DNA of 64,000 nucleotides from a virus, in the IMG/VR virus record IMGVR_UViG_3300024262_000018, positions 49,960 to 113,959 of that record; one strand, 5' to 3'. A program made the translations under genes and the position numbers. Positions 20,522 through 51,695 of this stretch are shown here, one piece after another (the stretch's first letter is position 1; each line of letters begins with the position of its first letter). The notes beneath the pieces were generated by a model, which was not told the origin of the DNA, searched no databases, and was given only the letters and a program-made list of their open reading frames with translations.

Positions 20522-20593
20522 GCTCATATCCGCTAACTGGTAAGCGAAAAGACTCTAAATTTTTTAATCGAGGTTCGAGTCCTCGTATGGGCG
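20522..20593 (+). tRNA. amber suppressor tRNA, anticodon CTA
   Basis: GCTCATA/TATGGGC acceptor, CGCT/AGCG D-stem, AAAGA-CTCTAAA-TTTTT anticodon arm, CGAGG-TTCGAGT-CCTCG T-arm. Confidence 0.85.
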
Positions 20594-24800: not shown

Positions 24801-26449
24801 AAAAATTAAAAAATAATGATCTTCAATATGAGAAAATAATTTCCGTAGAAGAGATCTCCCACGATGGATATATTTATGATTTAAGTATCGAAGAAAACCA
24901 CAACTATATTTCTGATAATTTAATTTGCCATAACACAATAGAGACTATCATAGCTGCCGATATGAGAATGAAAAATTCTGGCGGAAGCTGTTTAATAATT
25001 ACGCTTACCGTTGCTCAAGAACAATGGGCTAGTGAGATAGAAAAGTTTGCGAAGCATAACCCCGAAGACATATCTCTCAGTCCAGACGAATTAAAAACAT
25101 GGAATGTTTTAACATATCCTATGTTCCAAACCAAAAGTACTAGAGAAGCAACTGTTAAAAAATTACAAGATTATGTTAGAAGCGGAAAAATTACTTGCCT
25201 AATACTGGACGAATGCCATAGTGTTAAAAACAGTGGAGCATCTAGAACGGAAAATATACAAAATATATCTGACGTTATTGACGTAGATAAAGACAAGGTT
25301 AAATTAGCAGAATATCAAATTCCTTTTGTTTGGGGAGCGAGTGCAACTGTTGTTGCGAATAGGCCCGTTGACGTATATAACCAACTGAAGGCTATAAACC
25401 ATCCATTAGGTAAATTGAGCTTTGCTAATTTTGCCAAAGAGTTCGGAGGAATGAAACCTGGGCGTTATGGCTGGGAAGACACTAGTATAGAGGAACAGAT
25501 AAAAGCCGCGAATAAACTAAAAGAATGGTTGATAAATTTTGGGGTATATATAGCTAGAACCAAAAAAGATATTAGAGAAGATATGCCAGAACTTTATGTC
25601 GATGACGAATTTGCTCAAGTTGACCAGGCCAATTTATACAAGTGTGTAAGTTCAAAAGTCTCTGGATATAAAAAACCAGAATTGCCAATTTCTGTTATGA
25701 TGGCTACAAGAGACTGTTTAGCTCTTGCCAAAACTCCACATTCATTATCACTCGCAGAACCGATATTAAAAAGTGGAAAGAAAATAATGATTTTCACTGC
25801 TTTCAAAGCTGCTGCTAAGTATTTGGAATATGGACTGCAAAGAATACTAGATTCTATAGGAGAAGGGGGCCAAGTAGGAATTATAATAGGAGGGATGCAT
25901 AAAAAGACCAGGTCTGAAAATATAACTAATTTTAAAGATCCAAATAGCGACATAAAAGCTATGGTATTAATGATACAGGCGGGCGGAACGGGCTTAGATT
26001 TTCCAAATGTTGTTGAAGATGTTATAGAAAATGACTTTGATTGGACTCCGGCCTCTAACGAACAGATGAAAGGTAGAGGTTACAGAATAACAAGCAAATT
26101 GCCAGTTAGAATTAAATCTGTTATTGCGGAAGGAACAGAAGATGAAGACTTTAAACAAAGAGTTGATTCGAAAATAGAAGTTGCCGAAATCGTTATGAAA
26201 TTAACAAAAGAGCAATTAGAACTTTTTTCTTTATCAGAATCAGAAAAAACACAAAGTGTAAAAAATAGATTGCAAGATATAGAACAACAACTGATAGAAG
26301 CGGTTAAGCGACAGATTGAGCAAGAAGAAACGGAAGCGGAATTTGAAGAGCATATGGCTACTCAAATTAGAAATAAAATGGGAATGTCGGACAGAAGCAC
26401 TTTTGCTAAAACTAATTGGTATAGGAAAACTTGTTTTGGGAGAAAATAA
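21896..26449 (+). CDS. SNF2-family helicase with intein
   Basis: LYPLQREGV, GDATGVGK|T (motif I split by intein), LILDECH, SAT, GGTGLDF, QMKGRGYR. Confidence 0.88.
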   Translation: MRYKISQANMSIQGPAVVSLIQIVQQMYGLGAPTTFDDQGFNKTDYVNSNFQYIARLPVSDRTQLPIQQAVAAVQSLGKYKKTQLAGTWEQLYADIQKAINEAQGQSEVPNTTPVEQNKVLYKGRNRWGNDSYYIFSLTPQKYNSMLRLVGAKLGEMGQNASNAWKAFYKDKKGGLDLYQIDPRFTVFLKDLLAGYGYDTSEMFIRDEKADEIKKPTEEDSEYSKDDIQKFQIKKVELANGKLTVILGRWSTLWNETIRNLKENYTIGYSKHDHARIFTNPDKVLITTLINALKNEFDVAPLEALLEQVPDKIDQPKPASQVIITDKGIQLNVVNVLENTKGKWHIAISYLKKGTKEGKTLLDIIKFICPAFGKDESRFSGVIPDISNPYDPADKKDPDYPGDGGGYNYAYLIKGDYNQYRQLSMIFKKYGFDTRNLNKIIAGLVSEGVVETTRVEGDLDGYQKEVGFTDAAGNRRTTKVNDHDKFIKELDTYNKKIVKDGKEFDFALYPLQREGVAFLYGRNSALLGDATGVGKCKIGTSHVQTNLGDFEIQDIWNKFAKKISSVKENEEWGDLNVDLCVHSINNDGKVVRGKVNKLYRERFKGKLIKYKTDNGKETVVTRAHKFLTENGWKNDLSVGDRICSSSNQFSIHEPNNTKKDLAYLIAWQIAEGCELDNKIHSQTSLSINQKDKNILENLSKIIKSLNITKYRSIKKIEPRIKKIIRHGNQINRMELTSVNYKKYLESLGYAWGLKSKDRVVPEFIMNSSDEVVKYFLQAFFDAEGYTSNQARGIAVTSASQKLIYQISLLLQRFNIFCTYRKMMKCSTNGTKIKRPYYELKIVGSGMDIFMREIKFSYVYKTKKYNKFTDVKYNYNKEGKPIYLALEPFFKKYKLPPKIIGLNDDAYISGDKWMNDDSIENVINKLKKFRNSKIINEYAQLKRSKWTNSTTAVLEHIEIKDVENCIQSLEKLKNNDLQYEKIISVEEISHDGYIYDLSIEENHNYISDNLICHNTIETIIAADMRMKNSGGSCLIITLTVAQEQWASEIEKFAKHNPEDISLSPDELKTWNVLTYPMFQTKSTREATVKKLQDYVRSGKITCLILDECHSVKNSGASRTENIQNISDVIDVDKDKVKLAEYQIPFVWGASATVVANRPVDVYNQLKAINHPLGKLSFANFAKEFGGMKPGRYGWEDTSIEEQIKAANKLKEWLINFGVYIARTKKDIREDMPELYVDDEFAQVDQANLYKCVSSKVSGYKKPELPISVMMATRDCLALAKTPHSLSLAEPILKSGKKIMIFTAFKAAAKYLEYGLQRILDSIGEGGQVGIIIGGMHKKTRSENITNFKDPNSDIKAMVLMIQAGGTGLDFPNVVEDVIENDFDWTPASNEQMKGRGYRITSKLPVRIKSVIAEGTEDEDFKQRVDSKIEVAEIVMKLTKEQLELFSLSESEKTQSVKNRLQDIEQQLIEAVKRQIEQEETEAEFEEHMATQIRNKMGMSDRSTFAKTNWYRKTCFGRK
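23501..24934 (+). mobile_element. intein with LAGLIDADG endonuclease in helicase Walker A motif
   Basis: Starts CKIGTS, TRAHKF block B, IAWQIAEG and FLQAFFDAEG motifs, ends YDLSIEENHNYISDNLICHN|T. Confidence 0.92.
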
Positions 26450-31014: not shown

Positions 31015-34000
31015 ATGACAGAAACGATCAGCGATAATAAAACAAATCAATTTATAAACATGCCCGAGGTAGAAATAACTACAAGATTTGAAGATGTAAA
31101 AACCCAAACGACTGAAGATTATTTCCAAAATAATCAATTTTCTATTGACGCTTTTAATAAAAAATATACGCTATTCGATGGCGAGACATACGTTATGGCA
31201 ATAAAAAGAGTATGTGATTTTATCGCTTCAGCAGAAAAGACTAATAAACTAAAAACATATTGGTCAAACCGATGGTTTGATGAAATATATAATGACTGGT
31301 GGCACCCGGCAGGAAGCATAATGCAGGGAGCCGGATCAGAAAAAAAAATAAGCTTATCAAATTGTACGTGCATCTCCTTGGGTAATGAAAGACCAGATGA
31401 AGAGTGGGATAATCTAGAGTCTATTATTAAAAATTCGTCTTATGCTATAGCTAAAACCGCTGCTTATCGGCAAGGTTTAGGCATAGACTTCTCTCGCCTC
31501 AGGCCCAACAAAGCAAAAATAATGAACTCAGCAAACGAAGGGCAGGGCTGCACTCATTGGATGAAGTTTGCCGATTCTATTGGATATTATGTGGGACAAA
31601 AAGGAAGAATTCCTGCATTTTTATTTTCACTAAAATGCTCCCACCCAGATGTAGAAGAGTTTATAAAAATAAAATCCGATTATACAAAAATTCAAAATGC
31701 TAATATATCAGTACAATGCACAGATGATTTCTATAAGGCTATAGAAACTAATTCAGACTGGGATCTATCTTTTGAAATCCCAGAAGTTAAAATAGGACAA
31801 AAAGTTTATATTGACATTCATAGTACAGACATGGATAGTCAGTATGATAAAAAGAAAAAGAGATGGTATTATATCGCAAAAAAACATCGTCCTTTCGAAA
31901 AAATTTCCAAGAAGGTTAATGCTAAAGAACTTATGGAGCTTATCGCAAAATGCATGCATGCTAATGCTGAGCCAGGAATACAAAATATAGATATAGCAAG
32001 AAAATATTCAAACTCAGATTATGTTTATAATCCGGAAGATATATATGATAGTAGAATAGTAGGAACAAATGCCCCTCTTATCGGCTCTACAAAAATTCCT
32101 ACTAAAAACAAAATCACTACCATTAAAGAATTGTATGAAAAGTATGAGCAAGGAAATAATATTGAGTTAATATCTGACACTATTTCGTCTTTGCCCAAAG
32201 GGCATATTGATTGGCTGCAAAACAAAAATCAGAGAGGAATAAATTATTTCCCAACACAAACATTCCCCGTCCCAGCAAAAATTAAAAAATTCCCAAACCA
32301 AAAAGTTTGGAAAATTGTTTTGTCTAATCAAAAAGAGTTGTTCTGCAACGGAGAGCATTCATGGTTGGTTAATGGGGAAATGACACCAACTAAGAATATC
32401 AAAGCTGGAGATAAGATGTTCTCTCCCAACGGCGGGGTAGTTGATGCTTATGGTATTGAACCCAATTTTGAGTCTCAACCTTTTAAAGATGGCGAATTAA
32501 TTGGGTATATTGTTGGTGACGGCTGGATAGGAAAGAAAAGCAATATACATAATGAATCTATTGGTATTGTTTATGACGAAGATTGTGAATATTACAGTAA
32601 ATTATTCAGAAAGAAATTTTTTGAAATAACCGGAACATCTTTAAATTACGAAAGAGATAGAGGGAAGATTAAAGAAGTTAGAACAGAAAGCACTAAGTTT
32701 GTACAATGGGTAAAGTCATTTGGTTTTGATAAAAACAAAAACCATACTCCTGCACGATGCTTTGAAGATATTGATTTTTGCAGAGGTTTTCTTAGAGGCT
32801 TGTTCCAAGCAGATTCTCATGTAGAGCTTAGTAAACGTCAAAGTCGCGTAACCTTAACATCTGTTTCTAAATCATTAATTTTAGATGTAGAATCGTTGTT
32901 GTCTAATTGGTTTGGTATTTATCCTACGATTAAGGAATCAGAGTGTAGAGGAGTCCCATACGGAGATGGGAAAATCAGTAATGCAAAAAATAGATTCGAT
33001 TTACGTTTCGGAAGATATGATTTTATTGATAAATTTACAAAAAATGTAGGATTGATAGGTAAAAAGGGCGAGAAGTTATTTGCTGCATTAAAAAATAATA
33101 ATCAAAGAAATATTCGTAATTTCAAATTAGTCACTTCAGTAGAAGAAACAGATGATGTCCAAGATATGTACTGTGCTGTTGTTGATGGCATTCATTCCTT
33201 TGTTGCAAATGGATGTTTGTCCTCAAATTGTTCCGAGCAGTATCTTTCGCGCGATGGGCTTTGCGTTCTATCTTCTGAAAATATGGGGAGATTCGATACG
33301 GATCCGGAGATCTATGAAAAGCAACAGGAACGAATTTCCTATTCAATGAATAGATTTCTTGATGATGTTAATACAATGGAAATAAAGAGCGGGACTTATG
33401 CAACGCCATTTCAAAAAATAGGTATAGAAAAACTTAGAAGAACAGGAGCGGGGGTTACTAACATAGATGGGTGGCTGTTTAAAAAGGGATTACAATATGG
33501 AACACCTGAAGCTAATGAGGCCGTGGCTAAATTAATAGAAACGTTTAACTATTACCTTTATAAGTCTTCGATAGAAATTGGAAAAGAAAAAGGTAGTTTC
33601 GGGTTATTTGATAGGTCTAAATTCGAAAAATCTCCATTTATAAAAAGAATGATTGAAAAAGGTTTAATTTTTGAAACTATAAGAAATTGCACGTGCTCAA
33701 GCATCGCTCCAACAGGTACGATCTCTCTTATGTTTCGAGGGCTTGTTTACTCGTATGGAATAGAGCCGTCTTTTGGTGTCTATTTCTGGAAACGAACGAG
33801 GATGTCTGGCAACTATGAATATTATTTTTATGTTCCATATGTTGTAAGAGAACTATTAAAGAAATCAGGAATAAACCTCCCGATGGAAGGAGACTGCATA
33901 AAGGACACTATCGACGGGAAATACGGAAAACCAATTGCTAAAATAATAGACGAGGAGCTAAAAAATATAAATTTTAACTTTAAAGAATCTACCGAAATAA

Positions 34001-34857
34001 AAGCAATGGACAAATTAGATCTCATGGCAAAGGTTATGAAATGGATAGATTCATCTATCTCTGTCACTTATATGTTGCCAGAAAATTCAAAATGGCAAGA
34101 TGTATATGATTTTATTATAGAAGCCCATAAAAAAGAAGTTAAAAGTATTGCGTGTTTTCCTGATAAAAAAATGTATGGTATAGTCTCACTAATTCCATTT
34201 TTAGATTTAGCAGTAAATCTTACGAACGAAGGTGTAGAAATATCAGATCAAAATTTCTCCGAAGATGAGATAGATTTGTTAAAAAAACTGACAAATAGAT
34301 ATCAAGAGGAAAATGTCGAAAATAAAATAATAAAAACAACCGCTCCGAAACGCCCAAAATTACTTCCCTGCGATATGCATCACATTAAAGTTACAAAGAA
34401 ATTAGACAAAATAAGAACTTTTGATTATATTGTGTTCGTAGGTCTATTACACAACAATCCATACGAAGTTTTTGTTATGGAAAATGGACATATTAATAAA
34501 AAACACAAACAAGGAACAATAACTAAAAAGAAAAGAGGAGTTTATGGTGCGAATTTTGATGAGGAATCGATTGAAGATATAACATCTAATTCTTCCGAAA
34601 CAGAAGATATTTTAACCCGCCTTGTCTCTACAAGTCTTAGGCATGGGGCAGATATAGCCTTTATTGTAGAACAACTTGAAAAATCAGAAGGAGATCTATT
34701 CTGTTTTTCAAAAGCGATAAGTAGAGTACTAAAAAAATATATAAAAGACGGATCTGTTGTAAACGGAATAAGTTGTCAAAAGTGTGGGGGTAAAAATATG
34801 ATTAGACAATGTGGGTGTGCTGTCTGTGGAGATTGTGGATATAGCAAATGCGAATAA
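31015..34857 (+). CDS. nrdJ: class II (B12-dependent) ribonucleotide reductase with intein
   Basis: PAGSIMQG, NANISV, AEPG, TNA|CSEQ, RRTGAG, SIAPTGT, C-terminal TSCPD-like region and Zn ribbon. Confidence 0.85.
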   Translation: MTETISDNKTNQFINMPEVEITTRFEDVKTQTTEDYFQNNQFSIDAFNKKYTLFDGETYVMAIKRVCDFIASAEKTNKLKTYWSNRWFDEIYNDWWHPAGSIMQGAGSEKKISLSNCTCISLGNERPDEEWDNLESIIKNSSYAIAKTAAYRQGLGIDFSRLRPNKAKIMNSANEGQGCTHWMKFADSIGYYVGQKGRIPAFLFSLKCSHPDVEEFIKIKSDYTKIQNANISVQCTDDFYKAIETNSDWDLSFEIPEVKIGQKVYIDIHSTDMDSQYDKKKKRWYYIAKKHRPFEKISKKVNAKELMELIAKCMHANAEPGIQNIDIARKYSNSDYVYNPEDIYDSRIVGTNAPLIGSTKIPTKNKITTIKELYEKYEQGNNIELISDTISSLPKGHIDWLQNKNQRGINYFPTQTFPVPAKIKKFPNQKVWKIVLSNQKELFCNGEHSWLVNGEMTPTKNIKAGDKMFSPNGGVVDAYGIEPNFESQPFKDGELIGYIVGDGWIGKKSNIHNESIGIVYDEDCEYYSKLFRKKFFEITGTSLNYERDRGKIKEVRTESTKFVQWVKSFGFDKNKNHTPARCFEDIDFCRGFLRGLFQADSHVELSKRQSRVTLTSVSKSLILDVESLLSNWFGIYPTIKESECRGVPYGDGKISNAKNRFDLRFGRYDFIDKFTKNVGLIGKKGEKLFAALKNNNQRNIRNFKLVTSVEETDDVQDMYCAVVDGIHSFVANGCLSSNCSEQYLSRDGLCVLSSENMGRFDTDPEIYEKQQERISYSMNRFLDDVNTMEIKSGTYATPFQKIGIEKLRRTGAGVTNIDGWLFKKGLQYGTPEANEAVAKLIETFNYYLYKSSIEIGKEKGSFGLFDRSKFEKSPFIKRMIEKGLIFETIRNCTCSSIAPTGTISLMFRGLVYSYGIEPSFGVYFWKRTRMSGNYEYYFYVPYVVRELLKKSGINLPMEGDCIKDTIDGKYGKPIAKIIDEELKNINFNFKESTEIKAMDKLDLMAKVMKWIDSSISVTYMLPENSKWQDVYDFIIEAHKKEVKSIACFPDKKMYGIVSLIPFLDLAVNLTNEGVEISDQNFSEDEIDLLKKLTNRYQEENVENKIIKTTAPKRPKLLPCDMHHIKVTKKLDKIRTFDYIVFVGLLHNNPYEVFVMENGHINKKHKQGTITKKKRGVYGANFDEESIEDITSNSSETEDILTRLVSTSLRHGADIAFIVEQLEKSEGDLFCFSKAISRVLKKYIKDGSVVNGISCQKCGGKNMIRQCGCAVCGDCGYSKCE
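32074..33228 (+). mobile_element. class 3-type intein (Pro1) with LAGLIDADG endonuclease at the RNR active-site Cys
   Basis: PLIGSTKI...CNGEHSW...LIGYIVGDG...FLRGLFQADS...MYCAVVDGIHSFVANGCLSSN|C. Confidence 0.85.
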
Positions 34858-41502: not shown

Positions 41503-42222
41503 ATGATAAAGAATCTATTTCCATTATTAATTATTTTATTAATGACTTGTTCACTTACGGTCCAAAAAGCGGGCGGTGCCTGAGCGGGTAGCGGCTGTGG
41601 ACCCACGGGTGGTTCAACTCCAGTAAAACCGACTCCAGCTAGTTGTGCGGCCACATTCACAGGATGGAATATCGGTACTAATAATTCTGCTCCTACTGTT
41701 CTTCTAAATGCGGTTCCAAATAAAATGTCATCTATCGCAAGCTTTATAGCAAGCAATATTGACGATGAAAAAGCGAAGAAGGGAATACTTAATCCTATTC
41801 CGACTATTAATGAATTAGTCCCGATTTTAAAAATTGGCGATAAAATTAAAATAGATTTTGTATATGTTGGAAAACGATACTGGATAAATAGAGTAACGCT
41901 TCTGAATAAAAAGTCTTCTATCTATGATGATGCAAATAGCAGCAGCATATCATTTAAAACAGATAGTATTAGATTAGTTAAAAATAATACAAGACATGCT
42001 TTAAGAGTTACAAGAGGCACGCTATCATGGATGTTTTTGGTTCCATCTATAACGAAAACCGATACTAAAACAGGAAAGACTACTGAGATAAGCGACCCTA
42101 ATATCTTGGCTAAAATTAAACAATTTAAAACAGGAGAGAATGTTTTTATCGATTACGAGACGGTAAAATATACTTTTATTTTAAAAGATATTCGTCCGGT
42201 AAAAACAAAATCAAAAAAATGA
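41503..42222 (+). CDS. secreted protein with in-frame TGA at codon 27 (candidate selenoprotein)
   Basis: Signal peptide MIKNLFPLLIILLMTCSLTVQKAGGA, TGA 41581-41583, frame continues AGSGCGPTGG... into the ORF tracked from 41725. Confidence 0.6.
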
Positions 42223-42989
42223 AAATATTATTACTTATATTCGTTCTCTTGTTAGGTTGTGACAAAACAAATAATATGTTTTATTATTACAATGGAGAAT
42301 CTCCATCATTACCAATAGTGAGGAAAATAAGTAATTCTACAGTAGACATATATGATTATAAGAACGCAGGAACAGGTACAATACTAAAAAAAACAAAAGA
42401 ACATGCCTATATCCTTACTTGTGCTCATGTAATAGCAAACAGAAAGAGAAAACACACTCCTATATTCGATTTTAAGGCGTTAGGCCAATATAATATAACC
42501 CCGAAAACAACTTTTCTTGAATCCATTATTAAACCTCTTTTAGTAAAACAAACTAAATGGGTAGATGGACTGCCAATAACTTACTCACATAGTGCTGATA
42601 TATTTTTTCTAGATAGGTCGGTCGATATCTGTATCCTCAGAATAAATGGAAAAATTTATGGAGAAGAGATATCTCCATATAATAATAGTACAGTCGTTCC
42701 AACAGGAACAGAAGTTTATCATGTCGGTAATCTTTTTGGAAGTTTAAATTATTCTGTGACATCAGGGATTATTTCTCATAATTCTCGCGGATTATTTGGA
42801 GAAAGAATACAAGTAGATATAGATGTTACATTTGGTTCTAGTGGCGGCGGCATTTTTACAAAAGATAAAGGCGAATATGTCGGGATGGTGACCGAAAAAG
42901 CCACAAGGGATAGTAGTATTGCTATTATTATTCCTATTAAAAAGATAATAAAATGGCTCGAAGTTTACAGCGTCGAAAGAAATTTTTAA
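42219..42989 (+). CDS. trypsin-like serine protease, probable lipoprotein
   Basis: LLGC lipobox; LTCAHV, VDICIL, FGSSGGG. Confidence 0.85.
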   Translation: MKILLLIFVLLLGCDKTNNMFYYYNGESPSLPIVRKISNSTVDIYDYKNAGTGTILKKTKEHAYILTCAHVIANRKRKHTPIFDFKALGQYNITPKTTFLESIIKPLLVKQTKWVDGLPITYSHSADIFFLDRSVDICILRINGKIYGEEISPYNNSTVVPTGTEVYHVGNLFGSLNYSVTSGIISHNSRGLFGERIQVDIDVTFGSSGGGIFTKDKGEYVGMVTEKATRDSSIAIIIPIKKIIKWLEVYSVERNF

Positions 42990-42997
42990 TTTTGTTG

Positions 42998-43026
42998 TTG
43001 CTTTTTTACGTTCTCCTGCCTATAAT
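42998..43026 (+). promoter_or_regulatory. sigma70 promoter of tRNA array 1
   Basis: TTGCTT-N17-TATAAT. Confidence 0.8.
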
Positions 43027-43055
43027 CTTGTGAACAGCGATAAAGGCTAAGTTTT

Positions 43056-43163
43056 ATGAATAACATTCAAAACAACTCAACTCAGAACAACGGGACTCTC
43101 GTCCTGTCGTCCCTTTATTGTTTATCTGGGCACTCTTTGTCCCTCGGCTATTATAGTCTATAA
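43056..43163 (+). CDS. putative attenuator leader peptide (Leu/Ser/Tyr/Cys/Gly sensor), 35 aa
   Basis: MNNIQNNSTQNNGTLVLSSLYCLSGHSLSLGYYSL*, between promoter and terminator. Confidence 0.7.
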   Translation: MNNIQNNSTQNNGTLVLSSLYCLSGHSLSLGYYSL

Positions 43164-43220
43164 GACTAGCTTGAGCCGGACACAAAACTCTCTTTTTATT
43201 CCCGGCTCGGGTCATTTTTT
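43164..43220 (+). terminator. putative attenuator terminator 1
   Basis: CTTGAGCCGG (43170-79) pairs with CCGGCTCGGG (43202-11), then T6; competing pairing with CTCGGCTA 43143-50. Confidence 0.6.
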
Positions 43221-43242
43221 GAAAAATTAATATGAGTTCTAT

Positions 43243-43326
43243 GGGTTGGTTGAGCAACTGGACGCTCTGGCGACTGTAACTCGTCCGTCCGAAAGGACAT
43301 TGCAGGTTCGAGTCCTGTCCAACCCG
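43243..43326 (+). tRNA. tRNA-Tyr(GTA)
   Basis: Cloverleaf, loop CTGTAAC, long variable arm. Confidence 0.9.
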
Positions 43327-43333
43327 GTGATAT

Positions 43334-43423
43334 ACCCTTGTAGCAGAATTGGCTTATGCGATTGACTTAAAATCAATTGAGGAGTATAAACTCCTCGTGT
43401 GGGTTCGACCCCCGCCAAGGGTA
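43334..43423 (+). tRNA. tRNA-Leu(TAA)
   Basis: ATTGA-CTTAAAA-TCAAT, long variable arm. Confidence 0.9.
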
Positions 43424-43429
43424 TTACTT

Positions 43430-43517
43430 GCTCCTGTGGCGTAATTAGCAGCCGCGCTAGGTTTAGACCCTAGTGGGAATATCAAATCCCGTGCTGGTGC
43501 AACTCCAGTCAGGAGTA
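43430..43517 (+). tRNA. tRNA-Leu(TAG)
   Basis: CTAGG-TTTAGAC-CCTAG. Confidence 0.9.
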
Positions 43518-43524
43518 CTTATCT

Positions 43525-43610
43525 GCCCCTTTGGTGTAATTGGAAGCCACGATAGTTTCAAGAACTATTGCACTTTAACGTGCGTCTCGGTTCGAGTCCG
43601 GGAAGGGGCA
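43525..43610 (+). tRNA. tRNA-Leu(CAA)
   Basis: ATAGT-TTCAAGA-ACTAT. Confidence 0.9.
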
Positions 43611-43654
43611 TTTATATATTTTTCGCGCAAAATTATTTTCAAAGTGTAAAACAG

Positions 43655-43739
43655 GGAAAGTAAAGTTCATAGGTTGAGCCACCGTCTGCTAAATGGTTGG
43701 AGTGAGAAATCGCTTGTGTTTCGATTACACTGCTTTCCG
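43655..43739 (+). tRNA. tRNA-Ser(GCT)
   Basis: ACCGT-CTGCTAA-ATGGT, long variable arm, G73. Confidence 0.8.
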
Positions 43740-43755
43740 TTAATTAGGAAATAAA

Positions 43756-44337
43756 ATGAAAAAAGAACATTTTGATTATGGTTCCTATAAGAAATATATA
43801 AACCGCCAAACTAAGCTAGCCTCTCAAACAGTTTTCAAAACTCTTAGAGATAAGAAGTTTATCGAAGAAAGAGTTAAAGATCTCCTATCTCTTTATCCTA
43901 ATTATAAAAATGTTTTATGCTTAGGATCTAGACATCCAGTAGAAGTGGAAGCGTTTTTAACTGCTGGTTGTTCTGCTATAGGTATTGATCTTTTTGAAAC
44001 GCTACCACATATTATAAAATGCGATATGGCGAAGATGTATGAAAACTCAATACTTCGAAAAAGAAAACCATTTGATATCATATATATGAGCCATTCTTTA
44101 GAACATTGTTTAAATATCGAAGGGCTATTACAAGGAATTCAATGGAGTAATGCGACAGTCTTATATATAAGAGTTCCTATAAAGAATAAACCTGAAAAAT
44201 GGGATTGCACATTATTAGAATTTATGCTTCCAGATGGTAATCCCAATACGATAGAAGAATTATTTACCGGATGGACTCTTAAGGAGTTTACTCCGCTAAG
44301 TAATGAAAAGATTTTTATTTTAGAAAAGAGGAAATAA
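43756..44337 (+). CDS. class I SAM-dependent methyltransferase
   Basis: VLCLGSR...GIDL...FDIIYMSHSLEH. Confidence 0.75.
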   Translation: MKKEHFDYGSYKKYINRQTKLASQTVFKTLRDKKFIEERVKDLLSLYPNYKNVLCLGSRHPVEVEAFLTAGCSAIGIDLFETLPHIIKCDMAKMYENSILRKRKPFDIIYMSHSLEHCLNIEGLLQGIQWSNATVLYIRVPIKNKPEKWDCTLLEFMLPDGNPNTIEELFTGWTLKEFTPLSNEKIFILEKRK

Positions 44338-44338
44338 A

Positions 44339-44650
44339 ATGTCAGCATATTTTGTAGATTTAGATGGAACATTGTTTGAGTTTGGCACAGATATCTTCTT
44401 GCCAGGGACTAAAGAGTTTTTAGAGTTTATTAAAGAAAACAATCATCAACTTATACTAACAACTAGAAGGGGCGATTGGAGTGGGGTTTTTTCAAAAGAA
44501 AGCACTTTAAAAGCCCTTAAAGATCATGGTATAGAATATCATAGTATTATTTTTGGAGTTGATAGTCCTAGAATTGTTGTGAATGACGACGGATGCTCAG
44601 CTATTAATGTTATAACTAATATTGGTATGGAGAAAAAAGATTATGAATGA
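44339..44650 (+). CDS. small HAD-family phosphatase
   Basis: FVDLDGTL, LTTRR, VNDD. Confidence 0.75.
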   Translation: MSAYFVDLDGTLFEFGTDIFLPGTKEFLEFIKENNHQLILTTRRGDWSGVFSKESTLKALKDHGIEYHSIIFGVDSPRIVVNDDGCSAINVITNIGMEKKDYE

Positions 44651-44858
44651 GATTAAAATTGAATTTAAATCAAAGAGATATGGAGATACATTAGATGTCG
44701 GATATGGATATTCCAATAGCGAGGTTTTTGAAGGAGAGTTAAAAGAAGTTATTCGCAGGCTAGTTGACATAGACAAAAAATGTTATAAATATAATAAAGT
44801 AAATGTTTCTGTTGACCTTGTGGACGGGTATATAGAATTTATTGGAATTAAAAATTAA
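44643..44858 (+). CDS. hypothetical protein
   Basis: Short ORF overlapping the previous stop. Confidence 0.5.
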   Translation: MNEIKIEFKSKRYGDTLDVGYGYSNSEVFEGELKEVIRRLVDIDKKCYKYNKVNVSVDLVDGYIEFIGIKN

Positions 44859-44866
44859 TAATAACT

Positions 44867-44952
44867 GGATGAACTGGACATCGGTGAGTCCACTTGTTTT
44901 GAAAACAAGCAGGCCCGAAAAGGTCTTGGGGGTTCGAATCCCTCTTCATCCG
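44867..44952 (+). tRNA. tRNA-Ser(TGA)
   Basis: CTTGT-TTTGAAA-ACAAG. Confidence 0.88.
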
Positions 44953-44956
44953 GTAT

Positions 44957-45043
44957 GGAAGAACTGGGTATTTAGCGAACCCACTCGTCTCGAAAACGAG
45001 CAAGCCTGAAAGGGTTTTGAAAGTGCGAATCTTTCTTCTTCCG
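44957..45043 (+). tRNA. tRNA-Ser(CGA)
   Basis: CTCGT-CTCGAAA-ACGAG. Confidence 0.88.
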
Positions 45044-45128
45044 TTTAATTAATAAAATATAAAAATATTGAGTTGTGGCGTTTAAAAAGTTATAAAGAGG
45101 TATAAAACTTTGATGTAGGAGAAAAACT

Positions 45129-46286
45129 ATGACACCGCTTTTTGATCAATTAGAACCACGATTACTGTTGGATGGCACTTTTCCCGGCGACCTCAACCTT
45201 GATGGTTATGTCAATATGGAAGATCGTACTGAGGTTCATTCTGCTGCGGACTACATCGCGTGGAAGCGTAATATCGGCAAGACCGAGACAATCTCTCTGC
45301 TGGAAACGGTTCCCGGTGAGATACTTGTACAGGGGACGAATCATGCCGATACGATTTTTATAACGAACATTGGTGGTCGTGTTCAGGTTAATGGACAAAA
45401 CGCGGCAGGGGACGGAACCGTTGTTATCCTCGGCGGGAGTGGTGACGATATCATCTCGGTAGTCGGTCGTGATGCGATTGTAGATGCGGGTTCGGGTCGG
45501 GACATCGTTTGGTGTACTGACCCAGATACGGTTACAGATGCCGAAATCGTGCATGTATGCCCGAATTGGCTTCTTGACGGCACACCACTTCCTGAGATTG
45601 CTGGAGTAGAGTCAGGACAGAGTACTGATCTTTCGCATATACCGCTGTTTCCGCATGCTCCAGTGTACACTGATGTACAGCAAGGCATGTTGAATACTGG
45701 TTGGTTATTAGCGGCCTGTTCCTCTATTACGAAACAGCATCCCACGTGGTTAAGAGACAACCTTGTCGCATTCGGCGACAGTACCTACGGTGTAGCTTTT
45801 GCAGACGAGATTGTCCGGGTTGATGCCTCGTTCTGGATTTACCAGTCTGCTGTGGTTGAGGATAAAGGTCCACTGTGGCCCGTTGTTGTTGAAAAAGCCT
45901 ATGCGAGTAGTTTGGTTGGGGGGTATGATGCTTTAGAAAATTGTAAACCAGAAGATGCTATCGAGAAATTACTCGGCTGTAATTCCAGTCTTGTTGCGGG
46001 CGATTTCTTTGATTCAGCAGTAACTGCTTTGAAAGCAAAAAAAACTGTCGTGGTTCAGTTTGCCGAACTGCCGCTGAATGGCATTATTATGCCATTTCAG
46101 ACGTACGCCGTTCTTGCGGCATGGACTGGATATGATCCTGGAGAACAGTGGGTAACGCTCTATGATCCATTTAACTGTGATTATTCACCGAACTATGACG
46201 GCAAGTCGGCTGACGGTTTATATACATTACCTGCGAGTATCTTGGACACGTGCTGGTACATGGTATTAGAGTTGAGTGGCTCTTAG
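45129..46286 (+). CDS. LEPR-xLL / dockerin-like / calpain(C2)-like protein, probably catalytically inactive
   Basis: FDQLEPRLLL, GDLNLDGYVNMED, DVQQGMLNTGWLLAA, LWPVVVEKAYA; visibly GC-richer than flanks. Confidence 0.7.
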   Translation: MTPLFDQLEPRLLLDGTFPGDLNLDGYVNMEDRTEVHSAADYIAWKRNIGKTETISLLETVPGEILVQGTNHADTIFITNIGGRVQVNGQNAAGDGTVVILGGSGDDIISVVGRDAIVDAGSGRDIVWCTDPDTVTDAEIVHVCPNWLLDGTPLPEIAGVESGQSTDLSHIPLFPHAPVYTDVQQGMLNTGWLLAACSSITKQHPTWLRDNLVAFGDSTYGVAFADEIVRVDASFWIYQSAVVEDKGPLWPVVVEKAYASSLVGGYDALENCKPEDAIEKLLGCNSSLVAGDFFDSAVTALKAKKTVVVQFAELPLNGIIMPFQTYAVLAAWTGYDPGEQWVTLYDPFNCDYSPNYDGKSADGLYTLPASILDTCWYMVLELSGS

Positions 46287-46293
46287 AAAAATT

Positions 46294-46383
46294 GGAGGGT
46301 AGCAGATATGGTATCTAACTAGTTTAGAAGACTGGGCTAGCCTAATGTAAGTTGGGTTAATTGTTCGATTCAATTACTCTCCG
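46294..46383 (+). tRNA. tRNA-Ser(AGA)
   Basis: GGAGGGT/ACTCTCC acceptor, CTAGT-TTAGAAG-ACTGG, long variable arm, G73. Confidence 0.75.
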
Positions 46384-46438
46384 TACGCAAAGTGGTTTTT
46401 TTTCGCGATAATAAAAAAAACAACAACAAGGAATAAAA

Positions 46439-46714
46439 ATGACAGAATATAAAAATTATGATGATTGGTATGACAATGGACCTGGCAGCGAAAACTTCAC
46501 AAGAAAAATTGTCCAAAGTTCGAAAGTGTATCAAGAGGAAGAATACGAAAAAAAACGCGAAGAAGTAGTAAAAATTGAACGAAGAGATAAAAGGCAAAAA
46601 GCAGAAATAAAAAGATTGCGTAAAGAAAATAAAGAATTAAAAGTCGCATTAAAAAGCATGGTAGACAAACTAAATAGTGTGAAGCGCTATGTTAGTGTAT
46701 ATGATTGGAATTAG
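46439..46714 (+). CDS. hypothetical coiled-coil protein
   Basis: AAGGA RBS, 91 aa. Confidence 0.6.
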   Translation: MTEYKNYDDWYDNGPGSENFTRKIVQSSKVYQEEEYEKKREEVVKIERRDKRQKAEIKRLRKENKELKVALKSMVDKLNSVKRYVSVYDWN

Positions 46715-46717
46715 CAT

Positions 46718-46788
46718 GACCGATTGGCCGAGAGGCGAGGCGGCGTTCTGCAAAAACGCATACGTGGATTCGAATTCCACATCGGTCT
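46718..46788 (+). tRNA. tRNA-Cys(GCA)
   Basis: GCGTT-CTGCAAA-AACGC, U73. Confidence 0.9.
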
Positions 46789-46799
46789 TTTTTAAACAA

Positions 46800-46874
46800 G
46801 CACCATTAGTGTTTAACGGATCAGCATCTTTGATTTCCAATCAAAAGGTTCCAGTTCGAATCTGGAATGGTGTA
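46800..46874 (+). tRNA. tRNA-Gly(TCC)
   Basis: TTTGA-TTTCCAA-TCAAA. Confidence 0.88.
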
Positions 46875-46881
46875 GTTGCAA

Positions 46882-46953
46882 GCGGGATTGGTGTCAACAG
46901 TAGCATAGGAAATTGCCTATTTTCAGGAATCAGTGCAAATCTGATATCCCGTA
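46882..46953 (+). tRNA. tRNA-Gly(GCC)
   Basis: GGAAA-TTGCCTA-TTTTC. Confidence 0.8.
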
Positions 46954-46986
46954 TATCAAAGAACTCATATTAAAAAGGATGAAATA

Positions 46987-47808
46987 ATGCTAAGAGTTTT
47001 GGTAACAAGTGGCGGAACAAAAGTTAAATTAGATGATGTCCGGTCAATAACAAACATGTCAAAAGGGACATTCGGTGCTAAAATCGCAACTGAGTTCCTT
47101 AAAGCAGATCCGGAAATATATTTAACGTTTTTATCTGCCGAGGGAAGCAAAAACCCTTTCGATATAAATTGTTCAAGATATTTATCTCTTTGGCAAAATA
47201 TAAAAGAAGCTAATAGAGTTCGTAAATTCTATAATTCGCGTCGAACTCGTTATAGCGAAATTTCTTATAAGACTTATAATGATTATGCGGTAGAACTTAA
47301 AGGTCTTTTGGAAGGGAAAAGGTTTGATATTGTTGTCTTGGCTGCGGCAGTTAGTGACTATATTGTAGCTAATACAGTCGAGGGTAAAGTTCGCTCGACA
47401 GAAACTTTAAATATTGAACTAAAACCAGCCGAAAAGTTAATTTCTCAAGTCAAAAGTAAGATGGCTTTTCAAGATAACATTCTTGTTGGATTTAAATTAT
47501 TAGTCGGTAGCACCCATGAACAACTTATTCAAGCCGCTCAAAAAAGCATCTATGATAATGGATGCGATTTGGTTATCGCTAACGATTTAAGGGATATTCG
47601 TAACAGCAATCACAAACTAAGCATTTTAGAGCATCGTTCTGAACTTTATAATGGAGTGTGGAGTGATTCTATAGATCAATATAGCCATATTGACGCATTT
47701 GGAAAACCCCATGAAAATAATTATTTAGCATCTGTTGTAGCTAAAAGAGCGATTCATAAATGGAATAAAACTTTTGGACCGAAAGCGAGGCGAAAATATG
47801 GAGAATAA
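46987..47808 (+). CDS. coaB: phosphopantothenate-cysteine ligase (CoaB)
   Basis: VLVTSGGT...DDVRSITNMSKGTFG...LAAAVSDY...VGFKL...IAN. Confidence 0.88.
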   Translation: MLRVLVTSGGTKVKLDDVRSITNMSKGTFGAKIATEFLKADPEIYLTFLSAEGSKNPFDINCSRYLSLWQNIKEANRVRKFYNSRRTRYSEISYKTYNDYAVELKGLLEGKRFDIVVLAAAVSDYIVANTVEGKVRSTETLNIELKPAEKLISQVKSKMAFQDNILVGFKLLVGSTHEQLIQAAQKSIYDNGCDLVIANDLRDIRNSNHKLSILEHRSELYNGVWSDSIDQYSHIDAFGKPHENNYLASVVAKRAIHKWNKTFGPKARRKYGE

Positions 47809-48967
47809 AAAGAAAGTTCTTTGGGGTTTAACAGGATCAGTTGCAAGTGTTTTAACTTCTAAAATAACAAATGAAGCTCCTTGCAGATATGATGTTAAAT
47901 TCGTGGCTACTAAATGTGCCAGATCATTTTTCCATCTATCTCATGTAGACCCTCATAGTAAATTATATTTAGAAAAAGATGAATGGGAATGGACAGAAGA
48001 TAAAAATCAAACAACACAGATGAAAGAACAGGTAACAAAAAGATATTATACCTCAATACGAACAATTTGGCAAAAAGAGGATCCAGTTCTGCATATCGAG
48101 TTAAGAGACTGGGCAGATGTTTTGGTAATTGCTCCCTTAACTGCAAATACTTTAGCAAAAATGGCTAATGGCATCTGTGACAATCTATTAACTTCCATCG
48201 TAAGAGCGTGGCCTAGAGAAAAACCAATGGTAATTGCTCCTGCCATGAATACTGTTATGTGGGAAAGTCCATTTACAAAAGAACACATTAATAAACTTTC
48301 TAATATATATAATCTTAAAGTGGCTTGGCCAGTAGAAAAAGAATTAGCCTGTGGTGATCATGGCCTTGGGGCGATGGCTAATTTAGATACTATTTATGAG
48401 AAAATAGATAATGCCTTCCAATGGATTTCGCCAGTATCAGAATGTAATGGAATTCCTGTAGGTAAACATCCTGGGGCATTTGGCGTACAACGAAAGTATT
48501 CTAAACACTGCGGAGTTGATTTATATGTTAAGGATAATGTTACGGTTCACGCTATGGAACCAGGAAAGATTGTAGCAATTGAACCATTTACTGGTGCTCA
48601 AGATAATTCTCCTTGGTGGAACAATACAGAGTGCGTTTTAATACGTGGCCACTCTGGAAGAACTATTTGCTATGGAGAAATTACTACATCTAATCTCAAT
48701 CCGCCCTTGCGAGTAGGCCAATTTGTAACAAGAGGTCAATATATAGGGAATGTAATACCCGTTTTAAAAGAAGGCAAAGAACGTCCAGATATTCCTGGAC
48801 ATTCAAGATGCATGCTCCATATTGAACTTTATAAAAATAAAACAAATGTTCCTTCAGATGGTTGGGATAAAACAAAAGATATCGTTGGTTTAACTGATCC
48901 TACGCCATTCTTGCTGGACTTTTCCAATGGAAATTTTAAAAAATTAGAGATGACGGAAAATAAATAA
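47798..48967 (+). CDS. coaC: phosphopantothenoylcysteine decarboxylase (CoaC) fused to an M23 peptidase domain
   Basis: GLTGSVA, HIELRDWAD.LVIAPLTANTLAKMANGICDNLL, PAMNTVMW, LACGD.G.GAM; then HCGVD...HIE. Confidence 0.85.
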   Translation: MENKKKVLWGLTGSVASVLTSKITNEAPCRYDVKFVATKCARSFFHLSHVDPHSKLYLEKDEWEWTEDKNQTTQMKEQVTKRYYTSIRTIWQKEDPVLHIELRDWADVLVIAPLTANTLAKMANGICDNLLTSIVRAWPREKPMVIAPAMNTVMWESPFTKEHINKLSNIYNLKVAWPVEKELACGDHGLGAMANLDTIYEKIDNAFQWISPVSECNGIPVGKHPGAFGVQRKYSKHCGVDLYVKDNVTVHAMEPGKIVAIEPFTGAQDNSPWWNNTECVLIRGHSGRTICYGEITTSNLNPPLRVGQFVTRGQYIGNVIPVLKEGKERPDIPGHSRCMLHIELYKNKTNVPSDGWDKTKDIVGLTDPTPFLLDFSNGNFKKLEMTENK

Positions 48968-48981
48968 AATTAATTTTTCAC

Positions 48982-49010
48982 TTGCATTTCGCCCGCAAAA
49001 CGTCTATAAT
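48982..49010 (+). promoter_or_regulatory. sigma70 promoter of tRNA array 2
   Basis: TTGCAT-N17-TATAAT. Confidence 0.8.
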
Positions 49011-49047
49011 ACTGTGGTGCCGAAAATTCGGACCAAATAGGTGATTT

Positions 49048-49122
49048 ATGAAACGAATGTTTAAACATATTAATGTAGAGAATACATGGGTCTTTAAGAC
49101 CCGTTTAAGCGTTCGTGCGTAA
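49048..49122 (+). CDS. putative attenuator leader peptide (11-amino-acid sensor), 24 aa
   Basis: AGGTGA RBS; MKRMFKHINVENTWVFKTRLSVRA*. Confidence 0.75.
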   Translation: MKRMFKHINVENTWVFKTRLSVRA

Positions 49123-49142
49123 AGCCTTTCCTTCTTAAAAAA

Positions 49143-49175
49143 GCTCATCGCACAAAAATGCGATGGGCTTTTTTT
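49143..49175 (+). terminator. putative attenuator terminator 2
   Basis: GCTCATCGCA-CAAAAA-TGCGATGGGC-T7; competing GTGCG (49115-19) pairs with CGCAC (49149-53). Confidence 0.85.
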
Positions 49176-49199
49176 ATTGATAATAAGAAAGAATATAAA

Positions 49200-49358
49200 A
49201 TGAGTAAAAATAAAATAAATAATTTAATTAAAGAAATAGAAGGTACATTGAATAGTTGCTCTATTGTTGATATCGAATATCATTTTATCGAAGTAAAAGA
49301 TGAAATGCTTGAAAAGCTTCGAGAATTAAGAGCAGAATTAGGAATTTGGGATAAGTAA
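49200..49358 (+). CDS. small hypothetical protein
   Basis: ATG 49200, downstream of the terminator. Confidence 0.45.
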   Translation: MSKNKINNLIKEIEGTLNSCSIVDIEYHFIEVKDEMLEKLRELRAELGIWDK

Positions 49359-49365
49359 ATAATAT

Positions 49366-49440
49366 GGTGTCGTGAGTGTGACGGTTTAGCATTTTTGATT
49401 GTGAGTCAGAAGGAACCAGTTCGACTCTGGTACGATACCC
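49366..49440 (+). tRNA. tRNA-His(GTG)
   Basis: 8-bp acceptor including G-1, loop TTGTGAG. Confidence 0.88.
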
Positions 49441-49615: not shown

Positions 49616-49688
49616 GGGTACTGAGCAAGTCTAGTGATTGCGCAAGTCTGAAGAACTTGAGAAATTGGAGCATAACCAATAGTACCCA
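49616..49688 (+). tRNA. tRNA-Phe(GAA)
   Basis: CAAGT-CTGAAGA-ACTTG; atypical T-loop AGCATAA. Confidence 0.8.
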
Positions 49689-49705: not shown

Positions 49706-49819
49706 GTGGCGGTTGCATAATGGCAATGCAGCAGGAGACTTGAAAATGGTCTGTGGACATTATTTATACTGCGAGGGGTTAGACACCATCAAATATAGGT
49801 TCGATTCCTGTCCGTCATA
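49706..49819 (+). ncRNA. tRNA-like RNA with expanded central region
   Basis: GTGGCGG/CCGTCAT acceptor, GCAT/ATGC D-arm, ATAGG-TTCGATT-CCTGT T-arm, about 60-nt insert with no clean anticodon arm. Confidence 0.55.
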
Positions 49820-51623: not shown

Positions 51624-51695
51624 GGGCTTTAAACTTAGATAGCGAAGTAACACTCTTTTAAAGTGTAAAGGACAGTGCAAGTCTGTCAAGGCCCA
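51624..51695 (+). tRNA. tRNA-Lys(TTT)
   Basis: ACACT-CTTTTAA-AGTGT. Confidence 0.82.

Follow-up and report, generated by a model that had tools for sequence, protein, structure and literature searches.

What purpose dozens of tRNA genes serve in large phages, and how the expression of these genes is timed, is an open question. A short leader in front of a tRNA gene block on a virus contig bears on this question, and here we ask how the transcription of such a block might be controlled. The analyzed stretch of DNA (the window) was the right-hand 64 kb of a 113,959-bp IMG/VR virus record with a G+C content of 34%. The completeness of the record was estimated by CheckV to be 26%, and at least 30 tRNA genes were found on the contig (ARAGORN, Rfam). 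These two features, together with the presence of inteins, indicated that the window is a fragment of an uncultured giant phage. The inteins, which contained a LAGLIDADG endonuclease domain, were located in a helicase-like gene (21896–26449) and in the gene for the ribonucleotide reductase large subunit (31015–34857). A lone tRNA with a CTA anticodon (the amber suppressor type, labelled Pyl by ARAGORN) was found at 20522–20593, distant from the three tRNA blocks.

The region ahead of the first tRNA block was arranged in the order of a sigma-70-like promoter, a Shine-Dalgarno (SD) sequence and ATG, a 35-codon open reading frame (ORF), and a hairpin with a T6 tract, followed 22 nt later by the gene for tRNA-Tyr (Table 1). 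The block comprised genes for tRNA-Tyr, three tRNA-Leu, three tRNA-Ser, tRNA-Cys, and tRNA-Gly, with a few protein genes interspersed, and this set agreed with the one named in a preliminary description of the DNA. The promoter, the SD sequence, and the terminator look compatible with standard bacterial systems. Based on the sequence and on modeled folds, we think it rather probable that the leader is a multivalent leader-peptide transcription attenuator, which gates this block of phage tRNA genes. Protein genes were located within or just after the block (45129–46286 and 46987–48967), one of which encodes a calpain-like cysteine protease. A split CoaBC-like pair was also found among the genes of these two intervals, and its flavoprotein half was fused to an M23 peptidase domain.

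Table 1 Positions of leader 1, its tRNA block, and the two parallel leaders. Positions refer to the window unless stated otherwise.
Feature	Position	Strand	Basis and remarks
Putative sigma-70-like promoter, TTGCTT-17 nt-TATAAT	42998..43026	+	Sequence level; likely start near 43033-43034
Shine-Dalgarno-like TAAAGG	43041..43046	+	Read from sequence; 9 nt ahead of ATG
Leader 1 ORF, 35 codons, MNNIQNNSTQNNGTLVLSSLYCLSGHSLSLGYYSL and stop codon	43056..43163	+	Translation; start, stop, and frame kept in L003/L004
Hairpin P1, 7 bp, loop UCUC (43090-96 with 43101-07)	43090..43107	+	Codons 12-18; in the minimum-energy fold
Candidate antiterminator hairpin	43138..43182	+	5' strand in codons 28-32; -17.4 kcal/mol
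Intrinsic-terminator-like hairpin, 11 bp (43169-79 / 43202-12), 22-nt loop, then CA and T6	43169..43220	+	Folds; -18.1 kcal/mol
21-nt motif TTTGAAAAATTAATATGAGTT	43218..43238	+	Just before the first tRNA; kept in L003
tRNA-Tyr(GTA), tRNA-Leu(TAA), tRNA-Leu(TAG), tRNA-Leu(CAA)	43242..43611	+	ARAGORN, Rfam
tRNA-Ser(TGA), tRNA-Ser(CGA)	44866..45044	+	ARAGORN, Rfam
tRNA-Ser, anticodon AGA according to ARAGORN	46293..46384	+	ARAGORN
tRNA-Cys(GCA), tRNA-Gly(TCC)	46718..46874	+	ARAGORN, Rfam; final tRNAs ahead of the next promoter and leader at 48982
Leader 2, promoter TTGCAT-17-TATAAT, peptide MKRMFKHINVENTWVFKTRLSVRA	promoter 48982		Block: His, Trp, Phe, Asn, Lys, Arg, Val, Glu, Ile, Thr, Met; 20/23 residues from own set (P = 9e-4)
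Leader 3, same promoter TTGCTT-17-TATAAT, peptide MNNNIIFFDAPANAQPDPAQI	promoter contig 47285		Block: Pro, Ala, Asp, Gln x3; 11/20 residues from own set (P = 4e-4)

The amino acid composition of the leader peptide corresponded to the tRNAs encoded downstream. The ORF encodes exactly the peptide quoted in the preliminary description, whose counts were reproduced: Leu, Ser, Tyr, Cys, and Gly account for 20 of the final 23 residues, all six Leu codons are used (CTC, CTG, CTT, TTA, TTG, CTC, CTA), and five kinds of Ser codon occur (TCA, TCG, TCC, TCT, TCT, TCC, AGT). Codons 15–35 consist almost entirely of Leu, Ser, Tyr, Cys, and Gly codons, and 10 of the 11 codons from 15 to 25 are cognate to the block. 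Across the entire peptide, 21 of 34 residues belonged to this set, compared to a background of 26.7% calculated from the 87 long ORFs of the contig (binomial P = 2e-5), and mononucleotide shuffling of the leader gave P = 5e-4 for the same share. When the same bases were read in the other two frames, 13/34 and 10/34 residues fell in the set; the bias was thus frame-specific, and a pyrimidine-rich RNA alone is insufficient to explain it. The 114-kb contig contains 588 short ATG ORFs in six frames, of which four reached the set share of leader 1, and leader 1 was the only one with 18 set residues in a stretch of 20. Hydrophobicity is moderate in the C-terminal half of the peptide. A search against 1.84 billion representative proteins yielded two low-complexity matches in long proteins and no homologous small protein.

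The codon spread in the leader had been called unexpected, and sensing at the level of single isoacceptors had been proposed. Under the phage's own codon usage, six kinds of Leu codon in seven uses had a P value of 0.013, which is thin support for the first claim, and five kinds of Ser codon in seven uses were not unusual (P = 0.23). With these values, and with only five of the six Leu codons (no CTG) in the related leader of contig L003 described below, the case for isoacceptor-level sensing is thin. That ARAGORN found no tRNA-Ser(GCU) for the AGT codon in the array also counts against it.

Relatives of the protease gene upstream of the leader were found on three metagenome contigs, L002, L003, and L004, with identities of 77%, 58%, and 66%, respectively. 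Contigs L003 and L004 were identical to each other across the leader region and had the same layout as the window, with promoter, ORF, hairpin, 21-nt motif, and genes for tRNA-Tyr, three tRNA-Leu, and three tRNA-Ser, to which L004 added tRNA-Cys. The L002 contig ended just past the promoter. Contigs of four soil metagenomes, aligned to the window at 80% likeness, matched it from 43054, 2 nt upstream of the ATG, as far as 43240, 1 nt short of the tRNA, and were unlike the window on both flanks. The comparison comprised two full independent leader sequences (the window and L003/L004) plus the listed soil-contig variants. No RNA run was listed among the sequencing runs that contain the stretch. 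Near and distant searches revealed no cultured-phage record alike in DNA to the locus at 42200–47000 or to the leader. Within IMG/VR, searches for relatives of the locus with its single proteins gave no match, an alignment search recovered distant, non-syntenic protease relatives only, and DNA pattern scans with leader segments and the 21-nt motif returned nothing or chance matches without tRNAs.

The signals for transcription and translation were conserved among these sequences. The promoter hexamers and their 17-nt spacing were identical in the window, L003/L004, and L002, although the spacer sequence was different in all three, and in the soil contigs the 17-nt length was retained through a +1 indel offset by a −1 indel within the spacer. 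The preliminary description had cautioned that the ribosome-binding site is weak. This caveat was softened by the relatives, since L003 has AAAGGTG 8 nt ahead of its ATG and the soil contigs keep an AAGG(T) core although their upstream ends are unlike the window. The SD sequence and ATG were kept in every lineage.

The leader DNA was 82–90% identical between the window and L003 (83% in the ORF and 90% from the stop codon to the tRNA), which was higher than in the protease gene (73%) and in the tRNA genes (58–81%, with 60–65% for the three tRNA-Leu genes). The gene for tRNA-Tyr (3530–3622 in L003 and 43242–43327 in the window) was 58% identical, though the adjoining leader was about 85–90% identical, and this difference suggests that tRNA-Tyr may have been replaced or may be changing fast behind a fixed leader.

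Compared to the window, L003 had two 3-nt deletions and a +1/−1 shift that was compensated within six bases, so the start, the stop, and the frame were kept. The L003 peptide, MKNIHNNSTQNNKSLGLSSLYLSGSLLSLGYSL, differed from that of the window by seven replacements and two deletions, and the composition was kept. The replacements T14>S, V16>G, H26>S, and S27>L remain in or enter the cognate set, and the final 20 residues of the L003 peptide are exclusively Ser, Leu, Gly, or Tyr. The soil differences, among those listed, included N2>K, V16>G, and H26>L, as well as synonymous changes at N3, Q5, S24, and G25. The soil indels, again among those listed, comprised a deletion of 3 nt at 43148 as well as single-nucleotide indels, which were paired where both partners appeared. 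All indels seen in full, in L003 and in the soil contigs, kept the frame. Codons 6–12 showed no change at all between the lineages, synonymous changes included, and the 22-nt loop of the terminator (43180–43201) was identical in the window and L003, though it is drawn unpaired. These unchanged codons and the invariant loop point to RNA-level constraints beyond the attenuator model. The 3' half of the loop resembles a segment upstream of the antiterminator strand.

Leader 1 was not the only such element on the contig. Promoter sites of this type occurred four times in the 114-kb contig, and three of them headed tRNA blocks. For the amino acid set of its own block, each of the three leaders ranked first or nearly first among the short ORFs of the contig, leader 3 contained no residue from the Leu/Ser set, and a 3 × 3 table of leaders against block sets deviated strongly from independence (chi-square p = 5e-10). 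Leaders 1 and 3 have an MNN start in common. Otherwise the three peptides were unrelated in sequence and had no common length, charge, or hydrophobicity pattern, so that the match to the tRNA block was the sole feature shared by all of them.

The leader 3 region was located at 47285–47579 of the contig (about −2674 to −2380 in window numbering; L087 2286–2580). A tRNA begins there almost at the transcription start, ahead of the ORF (Rfam, 38 bits; missed by ARAGORN). The stop codon of leader 3 forms the apex of a strong hairpin, which is followed by repeated CCCGC/GCGGG segments permitting alternative pairings, and the region ends with the 21-nt motif and tRNA-Pro. In the leader 2 region (window 48982–49366), the ORF (49048–49122) lies inside a very stable fold (z = −7.8), a strong, 16-bp A/T-flanked terminator is present at 49137–49175, and a further ORF of 52–66 codons separates this terminator from tRNA-His. 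Among the tRNAs at 49616–49688, 49706–49819, and 51624–51695, tRNA-Phe(GAA) was found only at the relaxed threshold of ARAGORN, and two more Rfam matches were not called by ARAGORN, one of which, 114 nt long, may hold an intron.

The 21-nt motif is shared by leaders 1 and 3 in the form TTTGAAAAnTTAATAnGAGTT. Its second copy was located at contig 47551–47571, and it was found nowhere else in the contig. No recognizable −10 or −35 element was identified in the motif, which might serve in RNA processing, act as a promoter specific to the phage, or belong to the terminator. A hairpin that merely terminates the protease gene was also considered for leader 1 and was ruled out: the terminator cannot simply be the end of that gene because it lies downstream of a conserved promoter. 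The genes upstream of leader 3 are all on the minus strand, and the hairpins of leader 3 therefore cannot end an upstream gene.

The leader RNA as a whole folded better than its shuffles (z = −3.9). The terminator stem proposed in the preliminary description does pair at 43170–79 and 43202–11 (eight Watson-Crick and two G-U pairs), with T6 at 43215–20. Soil variants with T>C at 43171 and 43172 convert G-U pairs of this stem into G-C pairs, and the L003 terminator has one mismatch and a weaker U-tract, TTTATTCTTT. The antiterminator had been drawn as CTCGGCTA (43143–50) pairing with TAGCTTGAG (43167–75). Both segments are present, but the best competitor of the terminator is the longer hairpin listed in Table 1 (43138–43182, −17.4 kcal/mol). 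Its stems pair 43138–42 with 43178–82 and 43146–49 with 43174–77, and an apical stem (43154–59 / 43163–68) holds the stop codon. The two hairpins share 43174–79, and by taking 43174–82 the antiterminator excludes the GC core of the terminator 5' arm. Antiterminator and terminator were close in predicted stability, with −17.4 versus −18.1 kcal/mol in the window and −18.4 versus −17.9 kcal/mol in L003. Since the antiterminator bases are invariant between the window and L003, covariation offers no support for this hairpin.

Upstream of these alternatives, P1 differed between the window and L003 at three pairs, two of which had changed in a compensatory way and one on a single side; no pair was broken, and the compensatory changes alter the peptide. 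A U-rich stretch comes after P1, and no pairing joins P1 to the antiterminator strand. From these sequence features, it may be an RNA polymerase pause hairpin that keeps the polymerase and the ribosome in step. We found no Rfam family match at the gathering threshold, T-box included, and a search of 42900–43300 at E values up to 10 gave four chance-level matches to unrelated families. The T-box covariance model, with its Stem I specifier loop and T-box antiterminator bulge, was not matched by the leader.

A ribosome stalled upstream had been predicted to leave the antiterminator free to form. In constrained folds with the ribosome masked and the 3' arm of the terminator absent, 43174–82 was paired upstream when the A site was at codon 26 or earlier, in agreement with this prediction, and was not paired upstream with the A site at codon 28 or later. 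However, the same pairing was also obtained without a ribosome, so that nascent RNA free of ribosomes forms the antiterminator as well, which departs from the textbook scheme. No trp-like 1:2 protector helix was found in the leader folds. When the 3' arm of the terminator was present, the minimum-energy fold was the terminator under every ribosome mask. Because the terminator always wins at equilibrium, any switch must be kinetic, as in classical attenuators, and masked thermodynamic folding cannot separate classical from reverse logic. A ribosome on the stop codon covers about half of the terminator 5' arm, with 55% of the terminator pairs able to form, a second departure from the textbook scheme that leaves room for a reverse logic like that of pyrBI.

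The broader proposal of a translated leader with a terminator/antiterminator switch ahead of matching tRNAs was supported by every computational test run, namely promoter conservation, frame-preserving indels, set-preserving substitutions, frame-specific composition, the parallel leaders, and the competing hairpin. Three points of the preliminary description changed, in that the competing hairpin differs from the one first drawn, the isoacceptor-level part is thin, and the caveat on the ribosome-binding site is softened.

The order of the elements, the compositional bias, the sequence conservation, and the alternative folds were observed directly; from them we infer, as follows, how the leader would be translated, where the polymerase would pause or terminate, and which way the system would respond. 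Host RNA polymerase would start near 43033, and a ribosome would load at the SD sequence and ATG and translate the 35-codon leader. P1 (43090–43107) may pause the polymerase, thereby keeping transcription and translation in step. If the cognate codons were decoded slowly, the ribosome would linger at codons 15–26 and leave 43138–49 free to pair with 43174–82, and this antiterminator would form before the 3' arm of the terminator is synthesized. The polymerase would then continue into the genes for tRNA-Tyr, Leu, Ser, Cys, and Gly. Loss or cleavage of host tRNAs in infection is our conjecture for the cause of slow decoding. If decoding were fast, the ribosome would reach the stop codon in the apical loop and melt the antiterminator, the terminator (43169–79 / 43202–12) would form, and transcription would end at T6. 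A generalization of this scheme, to which we give even chances, is that each tRNA block of a giant phage is gated by its own tiny test gene written in the amino acids of that block, so that the block is transcribed only when ribosomes slow there, for example because of host tRNA decay or cleavage by an anticodon nuclease.

Four other explanations were weighed. In order, they are ribosome-position control or a reversed effect, a structured leader without a coding role, a separate small gene with a distinct promoter for the tRNAs, and chance. Under a pyrBI-like scheme of control by ribosome position, a ribosome arriving in time at the stop codon (43161) would cover the 5' arm of the terminator and prevent termination, and the block would be made when translation is healthy, or else the response would be set by the site of the stall. 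The stop codon lies just 6 nt ahead of the terminator stem, and only the 55% of terminator pairs noted above are possible with the A site on it. Stalls at codons 28–34 abolish the antiterminator and leave the terminator intact, and half of the cognate codons (26–35) fall in this stall-sensitive zone. We nevertheless consider such control unlikely, as a cut in tRNA output under scarcity would serve no evident purpose, an antiterminator that is conserved and just as stable would be superfluous, and codons 15–25, upstream of the antiterminator strand, are cognate as well (10/11). Slightly less likely, in our judgment, is that the ~190 nt from promoter to terminator act as non-coding RNA, either as a structured 5' leader or as a small stable RNA, with an incidental ORF; the stable RNAs of unknown role in the tRNA region of phage T4 provide a comparison. 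The conservation of the DNA above that of the neighboring gene, the lack of synonymous change in codons 6–12, the invariant terminator loop, the compensatory P1 changes that alter the peptide, and the z-score of the fold (−3.9) are all in keeping with an RNA function. A non-coding RNA would not explain, however, why the composition bias is confined to one frame, why the fully seen indels all keep that frame and the SD sequence and ATG occur in every lineage, or why three unrelated leaders each match their own tRNA block, and no Rfam family was matched.

At two blocks and at no other site, the 21-nt motif is placed exactly between the leader terminator and the first tRNA. This would fit an arrangement in which the ORF forms a separate small-protein gene, complete with terminator, and the tRNAs are transcribed from another signal, such as this motif (43218–43238) acting as a phage-specific promoter. 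The moderate hydrophobicity of the C-terminal half of the peptide would also fit a small protein. But the motif has no recognizable −10 or −35, the leader peptides share nothing in length, charge, or hydrophobicity beyond the match to their tRNA blocks, the peptide is poorly conserved (seven replacements and two deletions) while its composition is kept, and no homologous small protein was present among the 1.84 billion representatives, which together render this arrangement improbable. Least credible, and in our view very improbable indeed, is a chance pairing of an ordinary intergenic terminator with a random short ORF. In its favor, the contig is rich in short ORFs (588), and six codons specify each of Leu and Ser, but the composition statistics, the conservation above that of the flanking genes, the frame-keeping indels, and the parallel leaders all speak against it.

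If the leader-peptide attenuator is confirmed, the supply of phage tRNAs would be tied directly to a shortage measured in the ribosome, and leader-peptide attenuation would be extended from amino-acid operons to the tRNAs themselves. Because the composition of a leader names its block, it would also provide a readable rule for the tRNAs that belong to one regulatory unit. The element would then be a ribosome-based sensor combined with a counter-measure for tRNA depletion, and the first case of leader-peptide attenuation acting on tRNA genes. In full-text literature searches, no paper was found in which a leader peptide or attenuation was linked to tRNA arrays or to the tRNA genes of phages.

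Among enterobacterial attenuators, which include those of trp, his, leu, and pheA, some are multivalent: the thr leader responds to Thr and Ile, and the ilvGMEDA leader to Leu, Val, and Ile. Like the thr and ilvGMEDA class, the proposed phage element has a promoter and a short ORF with SD sequence and ATG in which codons of the regulated amino acids abound, hairpins that compete for a common strand, a GC-rich hairpin with a U-tract ahead of the regulated genes, and several amino acids per leader. Unlike the enterobacterial leaders, it is a phage element and its targets would be tRNA genes instead of biosynthetic enzymes. Its five amino acids are interleaved instead of occurring in runs, its stop codon lies in the apical loop of the antiterminator, and no 1:2 protector helix was found.

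Attenuation of the pheST operon, which encodes phenylalanyl-tRNA synthetase, by the pheM leader is similar in that a leader peptide reporting on the charging of tRNA controls part of the decoding machinery and not a biosynthetic pathway. There the target is a cellular synthetase gene serving a single amino acid, whereas here the tRNAs themselves would be controlled, for several amino acids. T-box riboswitches likewise sense the status of tRNA and place a terminator/antiterminator switch ahead of translation-related genes, but they bind uncharged tRNA directly and need no ORF, and the phage leader has no T-box match.

The closest idea in the literature is a silent operon of tRNA genes in Anabaena PCC 7120, the trn array, which is induced by translational stress (PMC8421152, PMC10272220). 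That array is under the control of a protein repressor, TrcR, and no leader is described for it (PMC8421152, PMC10272220); the 2021 paper does not contain "leader", "attenuat-", or "terminator". The proposed phage element thus differs from the Anabaena array in its mode of control, a leader peptide in place of the TrcR repressor, and resembles it as a supernumerary, horizontally mobile tRNA array that would be switched on when translation is impaired.
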